The position numbers and the translations under genes are program-made. A stretch of DNA of 64,000 nt from Candidatus Sedimenticola sp. (ex Thyasira tokunagai) (lineage in GTDB: Bacteria > Pseudomonadota > Gammaproteobacteria > Chromatiales > Chromatiaceae): the NCBI GenBank assembly GCA_037318855.1, contig CP134874.1, forward strand, positions 184,598 to 248,597. The letters run 5' to 3'. Shown here piece by piece: positions 1 through 62,960 of the stretch. Each line of letters begins with the position of its first letter. Within the stretch, counting starts at the first letter, position 1. A model generated the notes under the pieces. It was not told where the DNA came from. It searched no databases and saw only the letters and a program-made list of their open reading frames with translations.

Positions 1-2597
1 GCCTGCTGAACCCCAATGGCGCCCAACGTACCTGCCGATCCTTTAAGGGTATGGCAGATTTTCATGGCTTCCTCCCTGTCATTTATCGCGATCTGTTTAC
101 CTATTAGCTCCCAGTCATACCCATTGATAGCATCCAATTGATCAAGCAAGCGCAGATAGGTCGCTTCCTTACCATTGACATTGCGAAGTCCCCGTTCCAC
201 ATTTACCCCCTCATTTGTCGCTAACTGCTCCAGCTTGCTTATGCCGTTTGCAGGGGGAACGGGAACACTATCGTCAGTAATGGGAGAAACCGTCTTCTTA
301 TCTTGTTCAGGTAGCCACTTGGATAATACCGAAAAGAGATCGCTCGGATTGACCGGTTTGGAAACAAAGTCGTTCATTCCTGCATCCAGGCAAGCCTCGC
401 GATCCTCTTTGTAAATATTTGCGGTCATTGCTAAGACAGGGAGATTCGATAGCTTAGGCATTTGGCGAACCATGCGCGTGGCCTCCAAGCCATCCATCTC
501 CGGCATCTGCATATCCATCAATACAAGTTCATAGCGCTTACTGTGTATAGACTCTAGGGCCAGCCGGCCATTCTCTGCCGTATCCACAAGCAGACCTATA
601 CTTTCCAGCAACTCCTTGGCTACCTCTAAATTAATTGCATTGTCGTCAACCAATAGGACCTGTAATCCGTTGTAATTTTGATCTATTGATTCATCCACAC
701 CCTTAGGCTTGGTTCCATCGTACACTTCCATCACACCTTGGCCCCGGTGCAATCGTGCTGTAAACCAAAACGTACTGCCTTGTCCCAATTGACTCTGCAC
801 ACCAATCTCTCCCCCCATCATTTCCGCCAAGTGGTGGGTAATGGAAAGCCCTAGGCCAAAGCCCCCATACTTTCGCGTGGTCGAGACGTCCGCTTGCTCA
901 AATGCCTGAAACAATCTGGCCTGTTGTTCAGGTGTGATCCCAATACCGCTGTCTTCTACTTCAAATCGTACCAGTAGGCCCTTTGAATCTTGTTCCAGTA
1001 GACGGGCACGCATGAAAATCGAACCCTGCTCGGTAAATTTTATGGCATTACCGACAAAGTTCAACAGGGCCTGGCGCAGACGGGTAGGATCGCCTTGCAA
1101 CCAAACCGGCACCGCATCGGAGTCTACTTCCAACTGTAGATTTTTACTCTTTAACTGCGAGCCCATCAGCGACTGTATCTGGTCAAATATCGCATTCAGG
1201 TGAAAGTTAGACATTTCCAGTGTGAGCTTACCCGCCTCAATTTTTGAGAGGTCAAGTATGTCGTTAATAATTAAAAGTAGATGATCTGCAGAAGATTCAA
1301 TTGTTTTAAATCGATCTAATTGTTCGGGGCTAGCTCCCCTAAGTTTCAATAGGTGGGTCATGCCAATGATGGCATTCATCGGTGTGCGTATCTCATGGCT
1401 CATATTAGCAAGGAAGACACTTTTAGCCTTGTTGGCCATTTCGGCCCTTTGTTGTGCCTCGGCCAATTGATCAGTGCGTTGAGAGACCATCTCTTCGAGG
1501 TGAAGGTGGTGTTTGTCCAGTTCTGCGATAAACTGATGCTGCACAGTGACATCACGGAATACGACCACGGCTCCAGTCACCTGCCCTTGATCAAACGTTG
1601 GCGTGGTTGTGAGTTCAACTGGATAACAGGATCCGTCCTTACGCCAAATAACCTCGCCAATAATTGCATCTTTTTGGCCATCAATAGCGGCGGTGCAGAT
1701 ACGACACGCTTCGTAAGGATAAGGCGAACCATCGACCTTACTGTGATGCAGAATTTCATGCAGCGAATTGCCAAGCAACTCTTCCACCTTCCAACCCACC
1801 ATATTGGCTGCAGCCGGATTAACAAAGGTGACCTTACCTTTCTCGTCCAACCCATAGATGCCTTCACCAGCTGATTGTAAAATCTGACGATTCATCGCTT
1901 CAGCTTCAGTAATAGCCTTTACTATGGGGTCGCTAATTTTAAAAAAGACCATCACCCCAGCACTGATCAGCAGTAAGGCAATCACACAAACCACGGCCCC
2001 GGTCAAAATAAATGGCCGGCGAATCTCCCACATGTCAATCTTGGCAACCACGCCCATACCCAGCTCTGTGACGGGTTCATAGGCGGCTAAAACCAAAGCA
2101 CCGCGATAATCCAGCGCAATAATTGAACCCGACTTACCAGAAAGTGCCAAACGCATGGGTTCGGCAAGCGTCGACCATACTGGAATAGGTTCAGGAGTAA
2201 TGAGATCGTCGTGCCGATGGGTTAAAGCGAATGCGATGTTATCACCAATCAATTCACCTAAAACATATTCACCGCTGTCTCCAAAACCCTTAAAATTTTC
2301 GTGCGCTGTGCGAAGCTGTGAAATTGACCACTCCTTTGCTTTATCCTTAGAGTGGTCACCAGTCTCTCGGTCAAATTTGGCAATGGCATTTATGATGCTC
2401 GAATGACTTTTTGCAATATCAGTCAGTTGATCACGAAACTGCTCAAAGGCCGTTTGATATAGCAACCCTAGGGTGGCTCCTCCAATCAAAAGACCGATTA
2501 CGACCATGATGGACACCAGTGACAATATCCTTTTGCCTCTGGCAGGCATCAGTTTGCTTGATTCTATTACATTCATGGGCTGCCGCTGATAAGTCAT
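1..2597 (-). CDS. Hybrid sensor histidine kinase (2 TM + periplasmic Cache-like, PAS, HisKA, HATPase, REC, Hpt); 3' end runs off window
   Basis: Manual translation of the minus strand from ATG 2597 (absent from ORF track because it has no stop in the window): H-box [15 protein letters not shown]2 box [24 protein letters not shown]...[12 protein letters not shown], Hpt [13 protein letters not shown]. Confidence 0.9.
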
Positions 2598-2598
2598 A

Positions 2599-3492
2599 TC
2601 AACGCCGGTTTGAACGACGGAACTGACCAATGACAATAATGACAAGGCCCGCCAATAGGATAATACCAACCATTAGAGCAAGGGGATGACTAAACCAGGC
2701 CGATTGATCATACAGAGAATATTTCGCCAACCATTGATCTTGAATTTCCCGGATGGTCCCATTCTGATGCAACGAATCAATTGCTCTGTTAATTTTATCT
2801 AGCAGGGCCGGATTTCCTTTGCGCAGTGCAATCGCTATTTCCTTAGATGCCAGCGTCCATGCAACAGGGACGATGCCCTGGGCACCATGTTTTTGTATCT
2901 GGTACTGCCCCGTCAATCGATTCGTTGCGAGTGCATCAATATCCCCTTTCAGCAGCTTTCCGATACCATCCAGATCGTCCTTAATGATAACCAGGGTAAT
3001 GGACGGGTGGTCTTGCGATAGTTTCTGAAACGGAAAGCCACCCTTGGTTAGGCCGACTTTTATGCCGGACAAGGCCTCAGGGGTGATGCGCTCTTCATCC
3101 CCGGCATTCACGAACAGTGTGAATTCTACATCCAACGTGGGGTGGCTAAAATCGTATTTCAGCTTCCGATCAGGCGTTGCGGACATTAAGGCGTGCCCGT
3201 CAGCTTTCCCCACCTGAACCAATTCCTGGGCCTTCGACCACTGCATTAAGCGGTGGGTAGCGTTCAGACCGGCCTCTTTCGTGATGGCGGCTAAAACGTC
3301 GACTACCAGCCCCTTTGGCTGCCCCTCTTCTAGGAACTCATAGGGGGGATACTGTCGATCACCCAGAATCAATACGGGTTCACTATTATTCGTTTGCCCA
3401 TGCGCCTTCGGCATGAAGGCAAAATTACTGAATGATATAAAGAGTAGGGTGAAAATCAGTACCCAGTCGGGTACTTTTATGATGCGAATCAT
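2599..3492 (-). CDS. Extracellular solute-binding (PBPb, family 3) protein with C-terminal membrane anchor
   Basis: Signal peptide, [10 protein letters not shown]...GLVVDV and [16 protein letters not shown] motifs, C-terminal hydrophobic helix. Confidence 0.85.
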
Positions 3493-4012
3493 ATTCTACT
3501 TCCTGTAAGTATTCAGGCAGCCAGAATGTGGTTCGATGAAGGAGAAGCCAAATCACACACTTATGCCATGGTAGTTACTTTAAGTGTAGTCGAGAAAATA
3601 TCAGACCCTGCAACTAACGTTTCTTTATCTTTTGATGTTGATTTTACATCAAAATATTAGTTTGCGACTGATGGCACAGATGCACTGCCAATGGACCCCG
3701 TCAGATCACTTGATACTGATGCAGGTCCACAGGCAATAAATATAATCCTGATAATATCGGTGTCGGCGTGACCGACTCAAAGGAGGCTCAGCCTGGCACC
3801 AATCTACTCCTGAAGAATTCAACCATGATGGTACATCAGAAAATGAGGTATTAGCCGTTCTCGGCTTCAGTCTGACCATGCGGTAAATGACCCGTAATGT
3901 CTCCTAAGTGCTGGTAACCGACTCAGTCATTCGCACTCTTGTTGAATTGCACCGAATACTGACCCGGGATTTGCACCGAAAAGTGACCCACCCTGATTAG
4001 TCAGATTATTAA

Positions 4013-25570: not shown

Positions 25571-27826
25571 ATGCGTAATTTAAGCCTCAGTAAAGCCTCC
25601 CTTCTGCTTAATGCCATTGTTTTTTGTGCCCTTGCTATGGTGCTTTTCGGTATTATCCAGCTGAAAAGCCATATCGAACTGGTGGGGGACGCCTGGCTGC
25701 AGTTTGAGAAGGAGCGTGCAGAGAAGGTACGGCTGGAAAATGCACTCCGTTCAGCTCTCGGCTACGGCGGCATGGTGCACGATTATAAAAACTATATCCT
25801 TCGTGGTGGCAATCACCGGATCAACAGCGTCAACGAGAAAATCGGCGCCGCTCGAACTATTCTTAAGCAGTATGAAGCCCAAGGTACCACCCAAGGTGAA
25901 TCAGTCGCAATTGATGATATTCGTACGGTCCTTGATCAGTATGCACTCTCCATCAAGTCGGTACAGACAGAAAAAATGTTTGGCAGCGTATCGCTTGGTA
26001 AGTTAGGTGGCTCTCAGAAGATTGATGACGAACTGGCGGTTCGCGGTCTCGAGACGCTGCGCCAGGAGGGCAAGGAGAAGAGGAAGGGCGTACAGGAGAA
26101 GCAAAGTAAAGCAGAGCTGTCTGCGGCGCTACGTTCAACCGTCGGTTTCGGCGGCATGATTCACCACTTTAAAAACTATGTCCTACGCCAGGAGCCAGAG
26201 TCGGGAGCCTGGGCAAAAGAGAAGATAAGCCAGGCACTCTCTATTATCAGCGCCTATAGGCAGGCTGAAATCACGCGTGCGGAAGAGGTTGCTCTAGTCG
26301 ATATTGAGATAATGCTGAAAAATTACCGGGAGGGTATTGGGCGGGTGGTTAAATTGACTGCTGAAAATGCCGATATCCAGAAGCTGGACCGTGCCGTAAA
26401 AGTAGATGACAGCTACGCTATTCGTGGGTTTGTCACCCTCGATAGGGAGGTGGCTCGTTCCATTGAGTCCAGCTCGGGTGCGGTGACCGATACTATGGAA
26501 AAAATCGGTGGTATCGAGGCGTTCACCCTCTGGTCACTGTTGATCGGTGCAGCCACTACCGGTCTGTTTATACTCTGGCTGATTCATGGCCATGTAGTTT
26601 TGCCGATCAAAAAACTCTCCCGTGCCATGCATGAAATGGCAGGCGGGAAGCTAAAAATCACTATTCCTGAAATTGACCGCTCCAACGAAATCGGAGAGAT
26701 GGCACGCAGTATGGAGTTCTTCCGGGTTGAGGCGGTGAATCGGCGCAAGGCGGAGAAGCTGCTGGCGGAGAGAAATGAGGAGGTGCGGGAGCAGTTGCAG
26801 ACAGTGCAGGAGTTGCGTGAGCGTAGCGACAAGCAGGCAGGGCAGGCTATCGCTCTGGCGGAAGGGTTGACCACGGCACGTGAGGATACCGAGAAGGCGG
26901 TACGGCGGGCCGAGGCGGATGAGCATCGCATTCGTGCCATTCTCGACACCGTTAAAGATGCCATCATCACCGCTGATGAGAAGGGTACCATCGAGACATT
27001 TAATCCTGGGGCATCGGCTATTTTCGGCTATCAAGCGGACGAGGTGATTGGGCGTAATGTCTCTATACTGATGCCGGAGCCGATGCGCTCAGAACATGAT
27101 GGCTATCTGCAACGCTACCAGAGTGGTGCTCCGGCAAGACTGGTAGGGCAGACAGTGGAGCAGAAGGGGGAGCATCGGGACGGTACAGTGTTCCCGATTG
27201 ACTTGGGTATCGGCGTTATGCTGATCGATGGTAAGCGTAAATTCACCGGTGTTATCCGCGATATCACCGATCGCAAGCTGGCCGAGGAGGAGGTGCGCCG
27301 CATGGCAATGACTGATCCCCTCACCGGTCTGGCCAATCGTAACCGCTTCCACTCCTCTCTGGAGGAGGCGTTCAAAATGGCTGAGCGCAGAAAGTGGCAG
27401 GTGGCTCTGATTAGTCTTGATCTCGACAAATTCAAGCCGGTTAACGACACCCATGGTCACCAGGTGGGAGATAAATTGCTTGAGCAGGTGGCTGTACGGT
27501 TGTTAAAGATCTCCCGTGAAACAGACACGGTGGCACGTCTCGGTGGTGACGAATTCTCCGTCATCCTGGTTAATGTCGTAGACCAGGAGGCGACACAGAT
27601 CCCGGCTCAGCGGATGCTCGATGAGATCGCAAAACCCTTTGTCATTAATGGGCAGTGGCTGGAGATTGGTACCAGTATCGGAGTTGCCATCTACCCGAGA
27701 GATGCCGCTGATCCCGAGGCACTGATACGATGCTCCGATCTGGCGCTCTATGCCGCCAAAGAGGGTGGACGAAATCGCTACTGCCACTACAGCAGTGAGA
27801 TGGAAGCGGAAAGCGAGAAGGTTTGA
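25571..27826 (+). CDS. Diguanylate cyclase (duplicated periplasmic sensor, HAMP, PAS, GGDEF)
   Basis: Intact RETD...RLGGDEF; PAS IETFNPGASAIFGY; two TM segments. Confidence 0.92.
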   Translation: MRNLSLSKASLLLNAIVFCALAMVLFGIIQLKSHIELVGDAWLQFEKERAEKVRLENALRSALGYGGMVHDYKNYILRGGNHRINSVNEKIGAARTILKQYEAQGTTQGESVAIDDIRTVLDQYALSIKSVQTEKMFGSVSLGKLGGSQKIDDELAVRGLETLRQEGKEKRKGVQEKQSKAELSAALRSTVGFGGMIHHFKNYVLRQEPESGAWAKEKISQALSIISAYRQAEITRAEEVALVDIEIMLKNYREGIGRVVKLTAENADIQKLDRAVKVDDSYAIRGFVTLDREVARSIESSSGAVTDTMEKIGGIEAFTLWSLLIGAATTGLFILWLIHGHVVLPIKKLSRAMHEMAGGKLKITIPEIDRSNEIGEMARSMEFFRVEAVNRRKAEKLLAERNEEVREQLQTVQELRERSDKQAGQAIALAEGLTTAREDTEKAVRRAEADEHRIRAILDTVKDAIITADEKGTIETFNPGASAIFGYQADEVIGRNVSILMPEPMRSEHDGYLQRYQSGAPARLVGQTVEQKGEHRDGTVFPIDLGIGVMLIDGKRKFTGVIRDITDRKLAEEEVRRMAMTDPLTGLANRNRFHSSLEEAFKMAERRKWQVALISLDLDKFKPVNDTHGHQVGDKLLEQVAVRLLKISRETDTVARLGGDEFSVILVNVVDQEATQIPAQRMLDEIAKPFVINGQWLEIGTSIGVAIYPRDAADPEALIRCSDLALYAAKEGGRNRYCHYSSEMEAESEKV

Positions 27827-51276: not shown

Positions 51277-51485
51277 GCTGTATGTCCTCAAAAAAATCAG
51301 GGGGAACGTATTGTAACTGATCAAGATGGGGCGAAAACAAGGGAATTCAAGGGGCGAGGGTCTATTCAGAACATCTATATGAGGTATCTGCTCACCATGT
51401 CTCCCAGCCCCCAGACGGCCGTACAGATAATCAGAAGAGTAGCAGACGCTTACCTATTCGGGCGGGTGGAGAGAGTGCAGCCTTA

Positions 51486-53288
51486 CTAGGCCATCGACGG
51501 GTCGGTCTCCTCTGTCCGTTGTGACCAGTCAACCTCTTCAAGTGACGCCAGCGTTTTTTCGATCAGTATCTCCGTTGTATCGCCCTGGGCAAGATCCGAG
51601 ATCCCAAACCTGACTCTGTTTGCCAGCCCCACCTTCTTCGCGTGATCCTGAATTCGTCGTACTAATATCATAGCGCCGTCGGCGTTGGTGTTAGTGGTGA
51701 CTATACCGATACCACGGCTACCATGGTGCCCGGACAGATCACTGGCGCGGGTCTCATCGCCGACAATTTCCGCCAGTGTGGCGAGGTCTTTTGATGACGA
51801 GCCATCCTCTTTCTTTGGGCCTGTGTCTAACATCACCATGCTCAACTCCATACCATAGCGTGTTGCCCTACCGATCTCATTGCCGACGATCTCTTCAAAT
51901 ACCGATGGAATATAGAGGTGGGTGATGGGGTTCTTTTCAACAATCTGCTGGAATTGCCGTGCGAGCTCCTCCAGGTCAGGCTCCGGATCCTGCTCCCGGC
52001 GGTCGTTCTCGAAGCCTTCGTGATGGTAGTGTAGGTAGGCCATCATAAGAAACGAATAGAGGAAGATGGAGAGCAGTACATTACCAATGACGATAGCCTC
52101 AAACATCTCCCGATATGCAAACGTCTCGGGCAGGGAGTGGGCCATGATGATGGCAAGGCCCCCCTTCATGCCGGCCAGGGTCAGGACGGCCGCCCAGCGC
52201 TTTGGCAGGGAGGTAAGAGTGATAAACGGGAAGACAAAGAGTGCGCGTATCAGGGTGATTAGAATGAAGACCACAAGAATCTCTGGCCAATAGGTGAGTA
52301 TGCGGTTGAAGTCCAGCAGGTTGGCCATGCTGATAAAGACCACGGCATTGGCAAATAGCCCGAGGTAATGCGCCTCTTGTTTATAAGCGATGAATCCGCG
52401 GGGGGTCAGGGCGGGCACCCGTTTTATCAACTCAATCACCAGTTCGTAATATGAGTTTGGGTCCTTGATCGGGGTGGCGGATTTATCGATAGAGTAGGCA
52501 ACGATCTCACGGGTGGTTATATATTTAAGCCCGATAATAGCCGCAACGGTGGCGAGAATACCGGATAGATGCCAGTGCTCGGCAAGGACGAAGGAGAGAA
52601 TCGCCACCAGATAGATAATGATGAACTGCTCAACCGGATTCTTTATCATCTTCAGGGCAAAATAGCCCAAACCGCAAGCCACCAGCCCCACCACAACCGA
52701 GTAGGTGAGCACCTCGAATACCACTATATTGATACCCGCCAGAGTTACGTCGCCCCCCGTCAGCAGCGGCAAGGCGATGAAGTAGAAGATAATCAGCGCA
52801 GTGACATCATTAAAAAGGCTTTCACCCTCGGCATAGATCTTTAGCTTGGAAGGCAGAGTAAAGCGGCTGAAGAGACTGGATACGGTGATTGCATCCGTCG
52901 CCATAAGCATGGCAAAGAGTGCAATCAACATCCCCGCTGTAAAGCCGTAGTCGGGGAGCAGATAGGGGGTAATGCCCGTGGCGATGCCGATGGAGGCGGC
53001 TACGGCAATGACCGCCAGATAGAGAAAAACCCACACGTGCCGACGAACCTCTTCAACGGTAAGGCCGAGCAGATCCGGAAGCAGAATCAGCGGCAGCATC
53101 AGGTGAAGAATTTCATCAAAATTGGCACCCAGCGAGATGAAGATCTCCGGGAAAGTGAGGCGCAACAAGTAGGAGAAGATGATCAACGCCAGGGCAAAGG
53201 GGATTTTGACCACCTCCTCGGTCACCCGCGAGAGCAGGATAATCAGAAGGACACTGGTGAGTAGTATGATCATTAAAGAAGACTCCAA
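51486..53288 (-). CDS. CPA1 (NhaP-like) cation/H+ antiporter with C-terminal degenerate GGDEF domain
   Basis: ATDAITV and EGESLFND CPA1 motifs; C-terminus NPITHLY...ATRYGMELSMVMLD...RASD...VRFGIS. Confidence 0.85.
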   Translation of the reverse strand: MESSLMIILLTSVLLIILLSRVTEEVVKIPFALALIIFSYLLRLTFPEIFISLGANFDEILHLMLPLILLPDLLGLTVEEVRRHVWVFLYLAVIAVAASIGIATGITPYLLPDYGFTAGMLIALFAMLMATDAITVSSLFSRFTLPSKLKIYAEGESLFNDVTALIIFYFIALPLLTGGDVTLAGINIVVFEVLTYSVVVGLVACGLGYFALKMIKNPVEQFIIIYLVAILSFVLAEHWHLSGILATVAAIIGLKYITTREIVAYSIDKSATPIKDPNSYYELVIELIKRVPALTPRGFIAYKQEAHYLGLFANAVVFISMANLLDFNRILTYWPEILVVFILITLIRALFVFPFITLTSLPKRWAAVLTLAGMKGGLAIIMAHSLPETFAYREMFEAIVIGNVLLSIFLYSFLMMAYLHYHHEGFENDRREQDPEPDLEELARQFQQIVEKNPITHLYIPSVFEEIVGNEIGRATRYGMELSMVMLDTGPKKEDGSSSKDLATLAEIVGDETRASDLSGHHGSRGIGIVTTNTNADGAMILVRRIQDHAKKVGLANRVRFGISDLAQGDTTEILIEKTLASLEEVDWSQRTEETDPSMA

Positions 53289-53834
53289 CTCCGCCAGCCA
53301 GAATCAATCAGAGAATTCATTAGCCGGATTTTTCTGGGTCAACTCTCTCCATTGAGGAGCATGTTGCATTATACAGTGCTGTTTTAACCGCACCGGTGTA
53401 TCCAACCCCCTCAATCATCAGCTAACGGGGCGGCACTATCAGTATAAAGAAAAAGTATAGCACTCCGTTTACCAGTCAGGACGATCCCGTAGATAATTCG
53501 AGTTCTGACTTTCTTCTCCTTGGTCCCGTTCACCTGCTGTGTAGTCGTCTTCGACACGCTGGATAATGGACTTGCTAAAAGGGGATCAAAAATCACCTGG
53601 ATGAATTATGAATTGGCCAAGGTGCGGGTAAAAGCTGTGGCGTATTCCCTATCTGCCTTGCTGAGGAAGAAGCCTGCCTGTAAGTCTGCAAAATTGCGTC
53701 TACACTCAAAAGACGTTTTATGCAGTCATGTAGCTTGTGGTTTTCCTTGTAGGTGGGATGAGGCAGGGCACCGGTGTCAGAAGGGTATGTCCTGAACAGT
53801 AAACAATAATAGTCAGGCCAAGTGGTGGATAATT

Positions 53835-55637
53835 ATGCTGAAAAAAATATTTTTACCTACCATCTTTTTAATTCTGATCTACGGATTCTGGGTCAGTCCT
53901 GATTTCAAGGAGATTGCGGCCGGCGTGTCCGTCTTCCTGTTCGGCATGCTGTCGCTGGAAGAGGGTTTCAAGGCGTTTACCGGCGGGGCACTGGAAAAGC
54001 TGCTGCGAAAGACGACCGACAAGCTGTGGAAGAGCGTGGCATTTGGCGTGGTCTCCACGACGGTAATGCAATCCAGTTCACTGGTGTCGGTGATTACCAT
54101 CTCATTCTTGAGTGCCGGGCTTATTGGTCTGGCGGCAGGGATTGGAATCATATTCGGTGCAAACCTGGGCACCACCACCGGTGCCTGGCTGGTGGCGGGT
54201 TTTGGTTTGAAGGTAAAGATCTCCGCTTATGCCATGCCGATGCTGGTATTTGGCATCATCCTGATTTTCCAGAAAGCAAAATCACTCAAGGGCATTGGCT
54301 ATATTCTTGCCGGTCTCGGCTTTCTGTTCCTTGGAATCCACTATATGAAAGAGGGGTTCGAGGCGTTTAAGGACAGCATCAACCTGGCGGAATACGCGGT
54401 CAGTGGTTATGGCGGCGTCTTCCTATTTGCCACTATCGGCATACTCTCTACTGTGGTTATGCAATCAAGTCACGCCACGTTGGTGTTGACCATTACGGCC
54501 CTGGCGGCAGGGCAGATTACCTACGAGAATGCACTTGGTTTGGCGATCGGTGCCAACGTGGGCACAACCATTACAGCCATTATCGGTTCAATGAGCGCAA
54601 ATGAGCAGGGCAAGCGTTTAGCCGGTGCGCACTTGATCTTTAACATGACCACAGGGCTTATCGCCATTGCGTTCATTTTTCAGTTGATGGGGATAGTGGA
54701 CAGGGTCAGTGCAGGGGTGGGCATTGCAGCAGATGATTACACGCTGAAGTTAGCCGTTTTTCATACCATATTTAATTTAATTGGCGTCAGCGTTATGCTG
54801 CCTTTTACCAACCCAATGGTGAATTTCCTTGAGAGCTATATCAAAGCGAAGCCCGTGGATATCTCCGAACCTAGGTACTTGGACGATTCGGCCCTCGATT
54901 TCCCGGATACTGCAGTAGAAGCCCTGCGTAAGGAGACGCTGCATGCATTCGATAATTCTGTGGATATTATAACTAGAGGGTTGGGGTTCCCTCGTGAAGC
55001 CATCTCCCCGGATACTGACCTTGAAGCCTATCTCAAGGCGCAGAAAAAACCGCTGACGTGCAATATAGATGACAGCTATCGGAGAAAGGTTAAAACCCTC
55101 TACAACGCTATTATCGCTTTTGTCAGCAAGGCATCGTTCACCTGGGAAATGGATCAGTCTGAAGCACTGCACTGGTTCCGAAATGCCACCAGGGATATGG
55201 TCCAGGCGTTGAAGGATATCAAGCATATGCAGGATAATATGCAGCGTTACCTGGTATCTGAAAACGAAGATATACGTGCAGAGTACAACGCAATGCGGCT
55301 GGAGATTGGACTCACCCTGCAAGAGCTGGAAAAGATTCGTGAGTATGATGATCCAGAACACGCAGCGACTACTCTGCAGGCCCTGAAGCTATCACTGCAT
55401 GATACCGATACTGAGTTCAATGATGTGTCGGTACGCATGATCAGTAAAGGCTCCATTACACCTGAGATGGGCACATCTCTTATGAATGACAGTGCCTATA
55501 CTCATGATGTAATAAGAAATCTTATTGAGGTAGGTGAAACAATTTTCGTTGCACGTGCTCAGGATGTGAGTGAAGAGCAGCGAAAGATTTTACTTGGCGA
55601 AGATGAAATGAGCGATAACCTTGATGAAGTGATCTAA
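53835..55637 (+). CDS. Na/Pi cotransporter family protein with PhoU-like C-terminus
   Basis: Two QSS/GAN-GTT repeats (MQSSSLV..GANLGTT; MQSSHAT..GANVGTT). Confidence 0.9.
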   Translation: MLKKIFLPTIFLILIYGFWVSPDFKEIAAGVSVFLFGMLSLEEGFKAFTGGALEKLLRKTTDKLWKSVAFGVVSTTVMQSSSLVSVITISFLSAGLIGLAAGIGIIFGANLGTTTGAWLVAGFGLKVKISAYAMPMLVFGIILIFQKAKSLKGIGYILAGLGFLFLGIHYMKEGFEAFKDSINLAEYAVSGYGGVFLFATIGILSTVVMQSSHATLVLTITALAAGQITYENALGLAIGANVGTTITAIIGSMSANEQGKRLAGAHLIFNMTTGLIAIAFIFQLMGIVDRVSAGVGIAADDYTLKLAVFHTIFNLIGVSVMLPFTNPMVNFLESYIKAKPVDISEPRYLDDSALDFPDTAVEALRKETLHAFDNSVDIITRGLGFPREAISPDTDLEAYLKAQKKPLTCNIDDSYRRKVKTLYNAIIAFVSKASFTWEMDQSEALHWFRNATRDMVQALKDIKHMQDNMQRYLVSENEDIRAEYNAMRLEIGLTLQELEKIREYDDPEHAATTLQALKLSLHDTDTEFNDVSVRMISKGSITPEMGTSLMNDSAYTHDVIRNLIEVGETIFVARAQDVSEEQRKILLGEDEMSDNLDEVI

Positions 55638-55717
55638 CAAATCATCAGCAGATGCCTTGAGTCAAGACCTATTCAGAGGTGCGCAAAGAGGCTGAGTATT
55701 TAGATGGAAACTCTGAC

Positions 55718-55951
55718 ATGAATACGAAGAAAATAGTTAAAAAACTGGGCGATTTTTTTTCCATGAAACGGAGTAAGCAGAAGAAGCGCAAAGCAAAGGT
55801 TGAACAAATACTCGCCAAGCTTAATAAAAGAGAGAAGGAGCTTGAAAAGTTGCTTAAGAAAAAGATGGATGGGCGAAAACAGAAGCAATTAAAGAATGAA
55901 ATCAAAGTGCTGAAAAAGCAGAAAGAGAAGGCGAAAAAATTACTTCGCTGA
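55718..55951 (+). CDS. Small Lys-rich coiled-coil hypothetical protein
   Basis: 77-aa ORF from ATG 55718, very basic, downstream of the Na/Pi transporter. Confidence 0.65.
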   Translation: MNTKKIVKKLGDFFSMKRSKQKKRKAKVEQILAKLNKREKELEKLLKKKMDGRKQKQLKNEIKVLKKQKEKAKKLLR

Positions 55952-56051
55952 GATCACCGTATTTTATCGAGACGGCACCAGGTAGTCTCAGAGCAAGTAA
56001 TATGCAGCACTTAATGAATCCAGACCTGTGCGAGTGATAACCAGTAGACTA

Positions 56052-57437
56052 TCAAGTACCCAAAGCATCCAACGGACTTGCAACCCCCAATCCCCCCTTT
56101 TTGGTCACGTGAGTGTAGATCATAGTGGTGGCCACATCAGAGTGGCCCAATAGCTCCTGTACGGTACGAATATCTGAGCCTGATTCAAGTAGATGGGTGG
56201 CGAAGGAGTGCCTGAAGGTATGGCTGGTGACTCTTTTAGTAATTCCAGCTTCAGCTGAGGCCTTTTTGACTGCTTTTTGGATAACCGAAGGGTGAATATG
56301 GTGGCGGCGCATAATACCGCTGCGTGGGTCTTGGGCAATGCGACTGGCCGGGAAGAGATATTGCCAGCGTAGCTCCCTCTCTGCATTGGGATATTTACGT
56401 GACAGGGCTTCAGGTATCATCACGCGGCCAAAGCCATCCTGCAGATCTTTATCATGCTTCAGTTTTACCCAAGCCATCTGTTTCTGCAGTATATCGACCA
56501 TCACTTGCGGCATGGGAACAACGCGGTCTTTTTTGCCTTTAGCCATACGGATATTGATCTGCTTGTAGGCAAAGTCCAAATCCATAATGCGCAGACGAAC
56601 GCACTCCATAACCCGCATACCTGTCCCGTACATCAGGCAGATCATGAGCTTCTTCATCCCCTCTATATGAGAGAAAACCTGCTCAACCTCTTTGGGGCTC
56701 AGCACAGTGGGAATACGCCTGGGGTGTTTAGGGCGCCTAAAGGGGCCGATATCACCAAGCGGAGTCTCCAAAACACGGGCATACAGAAAGACCAGTGCAT
56801 TCAACGCCAAACTCTGGGTTGCACCCGAAACCTTGCGTTGCACGGCCAAATACTCTAAAAAGGAAGCAACTTCTCGCTCAGCGCAGCCTTGAGGAAGCGC
56901 ATTTTTATGAAATCGAAGGAAGCGATTGATCCAGTGCAAGTAAGTTTGCTCGGTACTGATGGAGTAGTCAGGTATTCGCGCTGCCGCAAGATATTTACGA
57001 AAAACGTCAGGATAATGTCTTGCGAGATCATTCTTGGGATTGCTCACCGCCTTATCAATCATCTCATAGGTTCTGGCCACAGTAGGGTGATCATTTCCGA
57101 GAGGCTGAGCACCAGACGACCAGTAGTCCCAGTCAAAATCTTTTGCCCAGGGTATCTTCAACAGGTGGCAATAGAGGAGCCGCAGCGCATCCACCCGCTG
57201 TCGATATTGCCAGGTGGAAAGTGCAGCATTGCGGCCCATGAGGTTAAACCACCGCTGCAGATTATCGGGAGTCTGCCCTTTCAGACGTGTATTCGGATGG
57301 GCATCAATGTACGCCTGTACATGTCGTCGGTACCATGGAAGCGCCTTATCCGGTACCCGAAACAACTGAACAACCTCAAGATACTGCTCCCAGAACACCG
57401 TGATATGGGGATCTTCACTCTCACTCATCGAATTCAT
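56052..57437 (-). CDS. intI: Integron integrase IntI with N-terminal extension (461 aa)
   Basis: YGTGMR, KGKKDR, HTFRHSFATHL, LGHSDVATTMIYTHV, plus the IntI-specific insert ALSRKYPNAERELRWQYLFPA. Confidence 0.96.
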   Translation of the reverse strand: MNSMSESEDPHITVFWEQYLEVVQLFRVPDKALPWYRRHVQAYIDAHPNTRLKGQTPDNLQRWFNLMGRNAALSTWQYRQRVDALRLLYCHLLKIPWAKDFDWDYWSSGAQPLGNDHPTVARTYEMIDKAVSNPKNDLARHYPDVFRKYLAAARIPDYSISTEQTYLHWINRFLRFHKNALPQGCAEREVASFLEYLAVQRKVSGATQSLALNALVFLYARVLETPLGDIGPFRRPKHPRRIPTVLSPKEVEQVFSHIEGMKKLMICLMYGTGMRVMECVRLRIMDLDFAYKQINIRMAKGKKDRVVPMPQVMVDILQKQMAWVKLKHDKDLQDGFGRVMIPEALSRKYPNAERELRWQYLFPASRIAQDPRSGIMRRHHIHPSVIQKAVKKASAEAGITKRVTSHTFRHSFATHLLESGSDIRTVQELLGHSDVATTMIYTHVTKKGGLGVASPLDALGT

Positions 57438-57481: not shown

Positions 57482-57561
57482 AACGTTTGGCGGGTTATGT
57501 CAACGAACGTGCCAGCGGGTTATGTCAGAAAACGTGCCGGCAATATAATCAGCTGTTATAC
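57482..57561 (+). other. Integron attI site
   Basis: Ends in G|TTATAC (57555), divergent from intI; preceded by three ~24-bp-period direct repeats. Confidence 0.8.
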
Positions 57562-61208: not shown

Positions 61209-62312
61209 CGCGCCAAGCGAAGCTTGGTGCATCTTGCAGGGTGAAAGTCCCTGTCGGGTAAGGATTAGCCACCCACCCGTATTGAGTGTTGCGCTTGTGG
61301 CGGAGTGCGGGGAGAGCAAGCGCTTTCCAGTTACTGGATGACTATCCACTGACCACCGCATGAACAAAACAGGTGAAGCGTACACAGCGAATCGTATAGG
61401 CCATAGGGTGTCCGCGCACCTGAGAGCTGGAATCGCCTCGACATAAATAACTGTTCCGAGTGATGAGAGCTGTAACGTACTCGAAATCCAAGTGAAGCAA
61501 CCGAGTTGGCAAGGTTGTGGAGACTCGGCGGGGTTCTCAAGCTGTGGCATGTACGAAGAGATGTATCGAGAACTTGGGAGACCCTAATGGTTCCCGGCAA
61601 AGTGCCGGGTAGGGAAGCCAAGCCGAAAGGTGAGGCGCTGCTGGTAAGGTATGCAGATGATTTTGTCTGTGCGTTTCGCTACCGAGAGGACGCGGAGCGA
61701 TTTTACCGGACACTGCCGAAACGATTGGGTAAGTTTGGATTGGAGCTATCACCAGAGAAGACCCGGTTAATACGATTCAGTCGTTTCCATCCCGGTGGAA
61801 AACGGCGGATCTGTTTTTGGGCTTTGAACTGTACTGGGGGCATGATCGCCAAAGGCGACCTCGCCTACACCGGAGAACGGCAAAGAAGAAGTTGGTGCAG
61901 GCGGTCAAAGGGATGGGGAGTGGATTAAGCAGTTTCGCCACCTCCCACTGGCTGACTTCCGCATTGCACTGAATCGCCGCCTCCGGGGGCACTATCAATA
62001 CTTTGGATTGATAGGTAACAGTCGGCAGGTATGGCTTTACTACAAGGAAGTGATCGAACGTGTTTATAAGTGGCTGAACAGGCGAAGCCAAAGACGGAGC
62101 TACACTTGGGTGGGGTTAAATGAGATGCTGAGGCAACAGGGAATCCTGAAGCCGGAAGTAAGGAAGCTTAACTTCCCCAGGACATACCTGATATATGAAT
62201 AGGGACTCCAGCATTGCGCGGGAGTGAGTATTACTGAGGAGCCGGATGCGGTAGTACCGCACGTCCGGATCTGCATGGGGGCGCTTTGGGTAACCGGGCG
62301 TCCTACCATTAC
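61208..62312 (+). mobile_element. Group II intron A (IIB, class E-like), internally deleted for RT0-4
   Basis: 5' GCGCGCC...GGGTGAAAGTCCC, domain I end GAACTTGGGAGACCC, RT remnant LVRYADDF..LSPEKTRLIRF..WLNRRSQR, DV GAGCCGGATGCGGTAGTACCGCACGTCCGGATC (62239-62271), 3' CTACCATTAC. Confidence 0.88.
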
Positions 62313-62528
62313 GTTCGCTGGTTTATGCGTAAGCACAAAGCGATTAGGCGCAGTAAAATGCGTGCGATGGCGCTTTTTGCCCGATGCATGAAGGAAAGCC
62401 CCGGTTTGTTTGTTCACTGGCGTGAGGGGATGAAAGGTGCGTATGCTTGATGGGAGCGGTATGAGCGGAGACGTTCACGTACCGTTCTGCGAGAGGCTGA
62501 GGGTGAGAGTCCCTTGGTCTACTCTCCT
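62313..62528 (+). mobile_element. 3' fragment of a second group II intron B (class D-like maturase tail + DV/DVI)
   Basis: VRWFMRKHK...PGLFVHW..stop at 62450; DV GAGCGGTATGAGCGGAGACGTTCACGTACCGTTC at 62454; DVI ending CTACTCTCCT. Confidence 0.82.
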
Positions 62529-62549: not shown

Positions 62550-62960
62550 GAAACTCACTTGGTCACCCACGAGCTCCTCGGGAGGCCCTTGCGGCTACGA
62601 TAGGACGCCACGGTACTTGGCCAGCAACCGATCAATATCAGCATTCCACAGCGCCCACGACTCCTTCGGGAGGCCCTTGCGGGTACGATAGGTCGACACA
62701 GTAGATGAGCGCTCGATACCCAGCATCCGAGCAATCTCAGGATTCGTCATCGACTGCCATTGCTCGTCGGTTACAGAATCCCAGTCATACTTGGTCGCCT
62801 TCGGGGCGCTCGGGAGGCCCTTGCGGGTACGATAGGTCGACACAGCAGATGAGCCCTCGATACCCAGCATCCGAGCAATCTCAGGATTCGTCATCGACTG
62901 CCATTGCTCGTCGGTTACAGAACTCCAGTCATGCTTCGCCCTTACGGGGGGTTTATTCAT
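62550..62960 (-). CDS. Tandem HTH-like repeat protein (two 48-aa repeats plus a frameshifted third)
   Basis: 144-bp DNA repeat; NPEIARMLGI..STVSTYRTRKGLP twice; third VASYRSRKGLP out of frame. Confidence 0.65.

Follow-up and report, generated by a model that had tools for sequence, protein, structure and literature searches.

We consider here a 64,000-nucleotide (nt) stretch of contig CP134874.1 (positions 184,598 to 248,597; hereafter the window) from Candidatus Sedimenticola sp. (ex Thyasira tokunagai), and within it a minus-strand gene in which a CPA1 cation/proton antiporter runs on into a C-terminal domain with the fold of the GGDEF domain of diguanylate cyclases. Taking sequence comparisons and structural models together, we conclude, with a probability of roughly 0.55, that the gene encodes a working Na+(K+)/H+ antiporter of the NhaP type whose cytoplasmic tail, a dead GGDEF domain, acts as a receptor for cyclic di-GMP (c-di-GMP) through the allosteric I-site. 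A further step, to which we give somewhat less than even odds, is that this would be the first c-di-GMP-gated secondary ion transporter, with a c-di-GMP dimer cross-linking the tails of the antiporter homodimer and thereby switching Na+/H+ exchange.

The sequence-only reading that preceded this analysis placed the gene at 51486-53288. A 600-residue open reading frame on the minus strand, open from a TTG at 53288, occupies these positions and contains the quoted peptides, but translation probably begins at the ATG at 53273, which gives a protein of 595 residues: alignment places the N-terminus of the relatives at Met6 of the longer frame, and a GGAG lies 9 nt 5' of this ATG. Residue numbers are those of the 600-residue frame throughout, and conservation counts refer to 121 full-length members of the protein's family. 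The gene and the parts of its product, with the grounds for each in brackets, are as follows.

51486-53273, minus strand: the gene, a CPA1 antiporter with a degenerate GGDEF tail (open reading frame, start of the relatives, GGAG)
52026-53273, minus strand: CPA1/NhaP-type membrane domain, residues 6-421, with 13 predicted transmembrane (TM) helices (PF00999, AlphaFold2, Foldseek)
52893-52898, minus strand: T131-D132, the TD motif at the presumed ion site of unwound TM4 (invariant, 121 of 121)
52806-52811, minus strand: N160-D161, the ND motif of TM5 (invariant, 121 of 121)
51936-52022, minus strand: juxtamembrane helix, flexible hinge and stalk helix, residues 423-451, from TM13 to the GGDEF-like domain (AlphaFold2)
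51534-51935, minus strand: degenerate GGDEF-fold domain, residues 452-585 (AlphaFold2, Foldseek, family profile)
51858-51869, minus strand: R474-A-T-R477, arginines of helix alpha1, candidate cross-dimer I-site contact (conservation, WspR alignment)
51789-51827, minus strand: residues 488-500 (DTGPKKEDGSSSK), a shortened and unconserved segment replacing the D-x-D-x-F-K-x-x-N-D-x-x-G-H substrate/metal-binding segment (alignments)
51738-51749, minus strand: R514-A-S-D517, the primary I-site RxxD (aligned with the RxxD of 3ign and WspR)
51708-51722, minus strand: G523-S-R-G-I527, the degenerate active site (A-site) replacing GG(D/E)EF (phmmer alignment)
51654-51656, minus strand: R545, 31 residues past R514 (R or K in 121 of 121)
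51489-51533, minus strand: disordered acidic C-terminal extension, residues 586-600 (predicted local distance difference test score, pLDDT, 38-56; not conserved)

The C-terminus had been described from its letters as a GGDEF scaffold, and structural modelling bears this out. An AlphaFold2 model of the tail, which is about 150 residues long, has a pLDDT of 90 and a predicted template modelling score (pTM) of 0.82, and the best 50 matches that Foldseek returns for it from the Protein Data Bank (PDB) are all GGDEF domains (template modelling scores, TM-scores, of 0.60-0.78), with a structure solved as a c-di-GMP complex, 3ign, at the top (E 5.8e-10, TM-score 0.74). Hidden Markov models give a more mixed answer: checked against the standard models alone, the window tail falls below threshold (26 bits against a cutoff of 37.4 for TIGR00254; 12.9 against 23.8 for Pfam GGDEF, PF00990), and a PF00990 scan of the whole host genome does not pick it up, but a profile built from 39 family tails matches the solved GGDEF domains of the PDB at 1.7e-22. 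A phmmer search of the PDB finds the GGDEF domain of 3ign (E 3e-6) and WspR. Since most relatives pass PF00990 and the family profile reaches the score just given, the homology of the tail to GGDEF domains is secure despite the sub-threshold score of the window copy.

The active site of this domain has been replaced, as the earlier reading also held. In the phmmer alignment GSRGI lies beneath the GGEEF of the solved structures, an intact GG[DE]EF occurs in 0 of the 121 family members, and the pentapeptide is evidently free to vary (SEDEY, NDDEY, ENGNL, GSRGI and others). The substrate/metal segment has a gap of about 7 residues relative to solved GGDEF domains, both in the phmmer alignment and in the family profile, and is variable across the family. 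Judged by its sequence, the tail cannot be a diguanylate cyclase, because GSRGI stands in place of GGDEF and because the substrate/metal segment is both some 7 residues short and unconserved.

The I-site, by contrast with the freely varying A-site, is kept. The RASD that the earlier reading placed at 51738-51749 is confirmed there by codon arithmetic as residues 514-517; it aligns beneath RQSD of 3ign and RSSD/RPSD of WspR, and GSRGI (523-527) begins 5 residues past it, which is the canonical RxxD-x5-GGDEF spacing. The motif holds across relatives as well: RxxD is present in 117 of 121 members and its Asp in all 121, so that R514 is 97% conserved and D517 is among only five invariant positions of the tail. 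The position 31 residues on, occupied in the window protein by R545, is R in 27 members and K in the other 94. The helix alpha1 arginines, which by analogy with PleD and WspR are candidates for a secondary I-site, align with those of the WspR "RRSLR"; R477 is invariant across family tails and R474 is 95% conserved. Although the family tails are only 21-52% identical to that of the window protein, R514, D517, R/K545, R474 and R477 are thus among their most conserved positions. We take the retention of RxxD in the antiporter family as an indication of selection, an argument that depends on how the motif fares in other degenerate GGDEF domains, to which we now turn.

The host c-di-GMP network provides the control. 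It is very large for a 4.56-Mb genome, with 58 GGDEF (PF00990) and 33 EAL (PF00563) matches, about 40 of the former with an intact GG[DE]EF; many of the matches lie in composite proteins of about 1000 residues, and one host GGDEF domain falls within the window itself (about 27305-27778, plus strand, in a 752-residue frame; G000:C1:211902-212375), 24 kb from the antiporter and unlinked to it. With cyclase and phosphodiesterase genes by the dozen, the host can supply the proposed ligand. Among clearly degenerate GGDEF domains of this host, RxxD is kept in 3 of 8; the motif was lost from the other five and so decays when it is not needed, and its retention throughout the antiporter family therefore points to selection.

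Several observations weigh against a c-di-GMP receptor in this protein or against its gating of transport. RxxD is also present in 38 of 41 (93%) active GGDEF domains of the host, so its occurrence is in part simple inheritance and in a single sequence means little; we accordingly downgraded the single-sequence motif as evidence and replaced it with the family-wide retention and the degenerate-domain control. Guanine stacking may be weaker with the Lys that 94 of 121 members have at the +31 position. A subclade represented by eight species-level loci (L038, L045, L049, L050, L051, L053, L057 and L070), from Hydrogenothermaceae/Aquificota, Sedimenticola, Cocleimonas and Thiotrichales, carries SxLD at the motif and thus no Arg; its proteins are 614-617 residues long, have x-E-N-x-A in place of GGDEF and retain a substrate segment of canonical length. 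This SxLD subclade may be a basal or a functionally re-tuned branch, and it may work differently, because it has no Arg and yet its host genomes are proficient in c-di-GMP. We considered using it as a natural experiment, on the idea that its carriers might have no c-di-GMP synthesis, and rejected this as non-discriminating, since all 12 of the 12 other carrier genomes have GGDEF matches (5-70 each). Gene neighbourhoods show no consistent cyclase linkage, with GGDEF genes near the antiporter in 10 of 82 loci, which is about the chance level. In public RNA-labelled runs the locus lies on contigs of 5-8 kb with flat depth across divergent genes, indistinguishable from DNA carry-over. Lastly, in SgmT of Myxococcus, I-site binding altered localisation and not activity (PMC3509222).

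The membrane domain had been assigned to the CPA1 Na+/H+ antiporters, and this assignment stands. It matches Pfam Na_H_Exchanger (PF00999) with 85.7 bits against a cutoff of 26.2 (E 3.6e-24); its score with the TIGR00831 equivalog model, 83.7, falls short of the 279.6 required, which excludes the protein from the equivalogs of characterised NhaP. Among solved structures, the plant SOS1/NHX7 exchangers are nearest to it in sequence. A full-length AlphaFold2 model, built from 46 family sequences (pLDDT 84.8), has 13 long helices before residue 421 and agrees with the NhaP fold, which is marked by crossed, unwound TM4 and TM11. Foldseek ranks SOS1 and the cAMP-regulated SLC9C1 highest for this model; the match to truncated SOS1 has TM-scores of 0.76-0.79 at a root-mean-square deviation of 3.3-3.9 Å, and NHE1, PaNhaP and MjNhaP1 also match, the range being 0.73-0.79 with truncated SOS1 included. 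We take the TD motif to mark the ion site of unwound TM4, and the ND motif to be the CPA1 signature of electroneutral exchange. In a strain variant recovered from public runs, 10 of 10 substitutions within the antiporter gene are synonymous. With the fold and both motifs kept and those substitutions all silent, the antiporter looks functional, as far as sequence and model can tell. A conserved cytoplasmic insertion at residues 258-310 was considered as a docking site for the tail and rejected, because tail-less sister proteins have the insertion and some tail-bearing relatives have a short, dissimilar version of it.

How the tail might act on the membrane domain can be sketched from two pieces of background: CPA1 antiporters are homodimers, and in inhibited cyclases c-di-GMP dimers bridge the RxxD of one GGDEF domain to an Arg of another. 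Given a homodimer, the two tails would lie side by side below the membrane on short stalk helices (the stalk helix spans residues 3-15 of the tail-only AlphaFold2 model). One tail would contribute RxxD and R545, and the other an alpha1 arginine, to the binding of an intercalated c-di-GMP dimer, and the cross-link would stiffen the cytosolic assembly. Through the stalk and the hinge on TM13, where pLDDT falls to 56 in the full-length model, the cross-linked tails would then change the elevator movement of the transport core, such that the rate of Na+/H+ exchange would track the cellular c-di-GMP level. The proposal thus combines the dimeric state of the antiporters with the bridging seen in cyclases; the sign of the effect, activation or inhibition, is not predictable from sequence.

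Both halves of the fusion have precedents, such that the protein combines known kinds: degenerate-GGDEF receptors on the one hand and nucleotide-regulated cation/proton antiporters on the other. PelD, an inner-membrane protein that senses c-di-GMP at an RxxD site of the I-site type and has a membrane machine under its control, consists of 4 TM helices, a GAF and a GGDEF-like domain, and regulates synthesis of the Pel polysaccharide; it resembles the antiporter in being a membrane protein with such a motif, and differs in having no transport domain. The archaeal PaNhaP and MjNhaP1, which share the 13-TM NhaP fold (TM-scores 0.73-0.75) and the TD and ND motifs, are not known to carry a regulatory domain in the cytosol, and pH is their only known regulator. 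SLC9C1 of sperm and SOS1/NHX7 of plants are the closest solved structures for the membrane domain and are CPA1 proteins with long regulatory tails containing a cyclic nucleotide-binding domain (CNBD) or CNBD-like domain; they differ in being eukaryotic and in relying on a CNBD (together with a voltage sensor in SLC9C1) that binds cAMP/cGMP, or on phosphorylation, with no GGDEF domain and no cyclic dinucleotide involved. A cyclic dinucleotide does act on CpaA of Staphylococcus aureus, a CPA2 transporter. There, transport by a cation/proton antiporter is altered when c-di-AMP binds its C-terminal cytosolic domain (PMC5575661), although the ligand, the sensor (RCK_C), the phylum and the physiology (K+/osmotic homeostasis) all differ from those proposed here.

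On the receptor side, the statement in the sequence-only reading that degenerate GGDEF domains with an intact RxxD can serve as c-di-GMP receptors is supported by PopA of Caulobacter and SgmT of Myxococcus, both of which combine a degenerate A-site with an intact I-site (PMC3509222); PelD of Pseudomonas aeruginosa is cited in that paper as a further receptor. Like the window tail, PopA and SgmT have a GGDEF fold, a dead A-site and an RxxD 5 residues upstream of it, in an architecture conserved across orthologues, and R763 and R794 of SgmT show the same R-to-R spacing of +31 as R514 and R545, as well as the same R-to-A-site spacing of +9 (PMC3509222). They differ in being a soluble response regulator and histidine kinase with localisation as output, whereas the window domain is fused to a 13-TM secondary ion transporter.

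The alternative that survives best, which we consider unlikely, is that the tail is a ligand-independent structural module for dimerisation, autoinhibition or partner docking, and that the conserved RxxD, R477-Y478 and G520 form a protein-protein interface. The invariant family-specific residues E471, Y478 and G520, which are not classical c-di-GMP contacts, stand beside those of the I-site, and the SxLD subclade keeps the Asp of the motif and not its Arg. There are parallels for it as well: I-sites can mediate protein-protein contacts, as in the GcbC-LapD case cited within PMC12421958, and the tails of SOS1 and NHE proteins are reported to regulate transport through autoinhibition and partner binding. 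What tells against a purely structural tail is that all three residues making up the primary I-site pocket are kept together at exactly the canonical spacing across phyla, in contrast to the vestigial GGDEF domains of the same host, which mostly lose RxxD, and that all carrier genomes examined are rich in c-di-GMP enzymes.

A second, quite improbable alternative grants that the tail binds c-di-GMP and holds that this binding, instead of gating transport, localises or clusters the antiporter, polar or patch sequestration being examples. It has precedent on its side, in that both characterised soluble degenerate-GGDEF receptors, PopA and SgmT, use I-site binding for spatial sequestration, and the enzymatic activity of SgmT showed no detectable effect of that binding (PMC3509222). 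The architecture of the window protein argues for gating instead, with a short helix-hinge-helix in the AlphaFold2 model tying the tail directly to TM13 of the transport fold, at the same position as the SLC9C1 and SOS1 tails that control transport; nor is there a conserved localisation partner in the neighbourhood.

It is very improbable that the ligand of the tail is another nucleotide (GTP, (p)ppGpp or some other cyclic dinucleotide), sensed at a remnant A-site or at the I-site: at the A-site position about one-third of family members do retain an acidic pair together with an aromatic residue (xxDEY, as in SEDEY and NDDEY), and structures of PleD with ppGpp or pppGpp exist (9g85, 9g86), but the A-site is unconserved across the family and reads GSRGI in the window protein, the base/phosphate-binding segment is shortened, and the residues that are conserved are those of a c-di-GMP I-site. 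A membrane-bound diguanylate cyclase that is active and has the antiporter for its sensor, as an NCBI entry named "diguanylate cyclase [Sulfurimonas sp.]" and the many relatives exceeding the Pfam GGDEF threshold might suggest, is effectively refuted at the sequence level by GG[DE]EF in 0 of 121 members, the shortened substrate/metal segment and an unconserved position for the first metal-binding Asp.

The fusion is, on sequence grounds, not rare, and the window copy is a divergent member of a sizeable uncharacterised family, 70% identical to its two nearest relatives, both metagenomic, and 37-60% identical to all the others. A word-indexed search with the tail returned only two close relatives; exhaustive and profile searches reached a large family of at least 409 proteins at E <= 1e-30, and for most of the top 120, matches to both PF00999 and PF00990 are already precomputed. 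Databases name them "cation:proton antiporter" and, in that one NCBI entry, diguanylate cyclase. Counting tail-less proteins as well, species-representative genomes contain 480 stretches that code for relatives of the query; the best 80 of these 480 loci belong to Campylobacterota (Sulfurimonas, Arcobacteraceae, Sulfurovum), Aquificota (Hydrogenothermaceae) and sulfur-oxidising Gammaproteobacteria, and cultured carriers include Thiomicrorhabdus marina 6S2-11, Hydrogenovibrio halophilus DSM 15072 and Thiomicrospira sp. WB1. The Campylobacteraceae/Sulfurospirillum loci (L075-L083) encode tail-less sister antiporters of about 446 residues that end just past TM13, from which it follows that the GGDEF-like tail was added as a module to an NhaP-type clade that already existed.

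The sequence-only reading knew of no characterised example of this fusion. The architecture is common and already precomputed in databases. In full-text literature searches, neither a CPA1-GGDEF fusion nor a Na+/H+ antiporter regulated by c-di-GMP turned out to have been described. Two apparent precedents were rejected, namely a co-mention of NhaP and GGDEF in Leptospirillum, which concerns an unrelated GAF-GGDEF gene, and a paper on Halomonas DgcY, which concerns an active cyclase and a LysR regulator.

The genomic surroundings of the window gene are peculiar to this genome. Synteny with the closest same-genus genome ends at 51448, just past hslV, and resumes at about 56043, with about 410 bp in place of the intervening DNA there, which marks the 4.6 kb between as specific to this genome; none of 40 related genomes, of which four belong to the same genus, has the antiporter. 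The elements of this region are listed below.

51449-56042, no strand: genome-specific 4.6-kb segment with the antiporter, a divergent Na/Pi symporter and a small Lys-rich open reading frame (synteny)
53835-55637, plus strand: Na/Pi symporter, divergently transcribed, within the 4.6-kb segment; it shares a divergent promoter region of 546 bp with the antiporter gene
55679-55951: Lys-rich open reading frame of 90 residues in a low-GC stretch (0.39-0.44)
56052-57437, minus strand: integron integrase (TIGR02249, 442.5 bits against a cutoff of 265)

That a Na+-coupled importer is paired with a Na+ extruder is suggestive of a small sodium-cycle module, and the segment may be an acquired "sodium-cycle" pair; the pairing of antiporter and Na/Pi symporter is not conserved at other family loci. 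The integron integrase adjoins the segment, and a more diverged copy of it (66-78% DNA identity) is present in a same-genus relative (G003). We rejected the segment as a canonical integron cassette, because it lies on the 3' side of the integrase and neither attC-like repeats nor flanking repeats were found at it. On the other, 5' (attI) side of intI, a 25-nt repeat in tandem occupies 57490-57539. Further along the window are a group II intron (RF02005 at 61244-61543; RF00029 domains at 62237-62312 and 62452-62527) and, at 62557-62936, repeat families of 55 nt and 127 nt.

Elsewhere in the family, no neighbour is broadly conserved (14 of 82 loci at best), and conserved synteny with a cyclase or phosphodiesterase was rejected on the strength of the chance-level count of nearby GGDEF genes given above. 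A cyclase lies directly upstream in only two loci, L052 (Hydrogenovibrio sp. SC-1, 1101-3908) and L055 (a Piscirickettsiaceae metagenome-assembled genome, 124-2040), in each of which a large protein with an intact GGDEF and RxxD is encoded on the same strand as the antiporter at a gap of 40-50 bp; this arrangement may be a cyclase-receptor operon. We note also that at the loci of one relative (P0003) a 38-residue open reading frame (L001, 5888-6004; L002, 170-286) overlaps the antiporter start by 4 nt, and that no equivalent is evident upstream of the window gene.

For annotation, the consequence is that some members of the family are misnamed "diguanylate cyclase" and that the tail of divergent members, such as that of the window, is missed by Pfam. 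The effectors of c-di-GMP known so far act on polysaccharide synthases, flagellar motors, secretion ATPases, proteolysis, transcription and riboswitches; we know of no description of a secondary ion transporter under direct c-di-GMP control, and ion homeostasis has so far been the domain of c-di-AMP. The gating proposed here is directly testable, given a large family, cultured strains that are non-pathogenic and a few well-defined predicted contact residues. If true, it would add a new output class to c-di-GMP signalling and would be the c-di-GMP counterpart of c-di-AMP control over K+/H+ antiport. In the sulfur oxidisers of marine and vent habitats, chemolithoautotrophs that acidify their surroundings and often use Na+ gradients, such control would wire the choice of a motile or a sessile life to the sodium-motive force and to pH balance.

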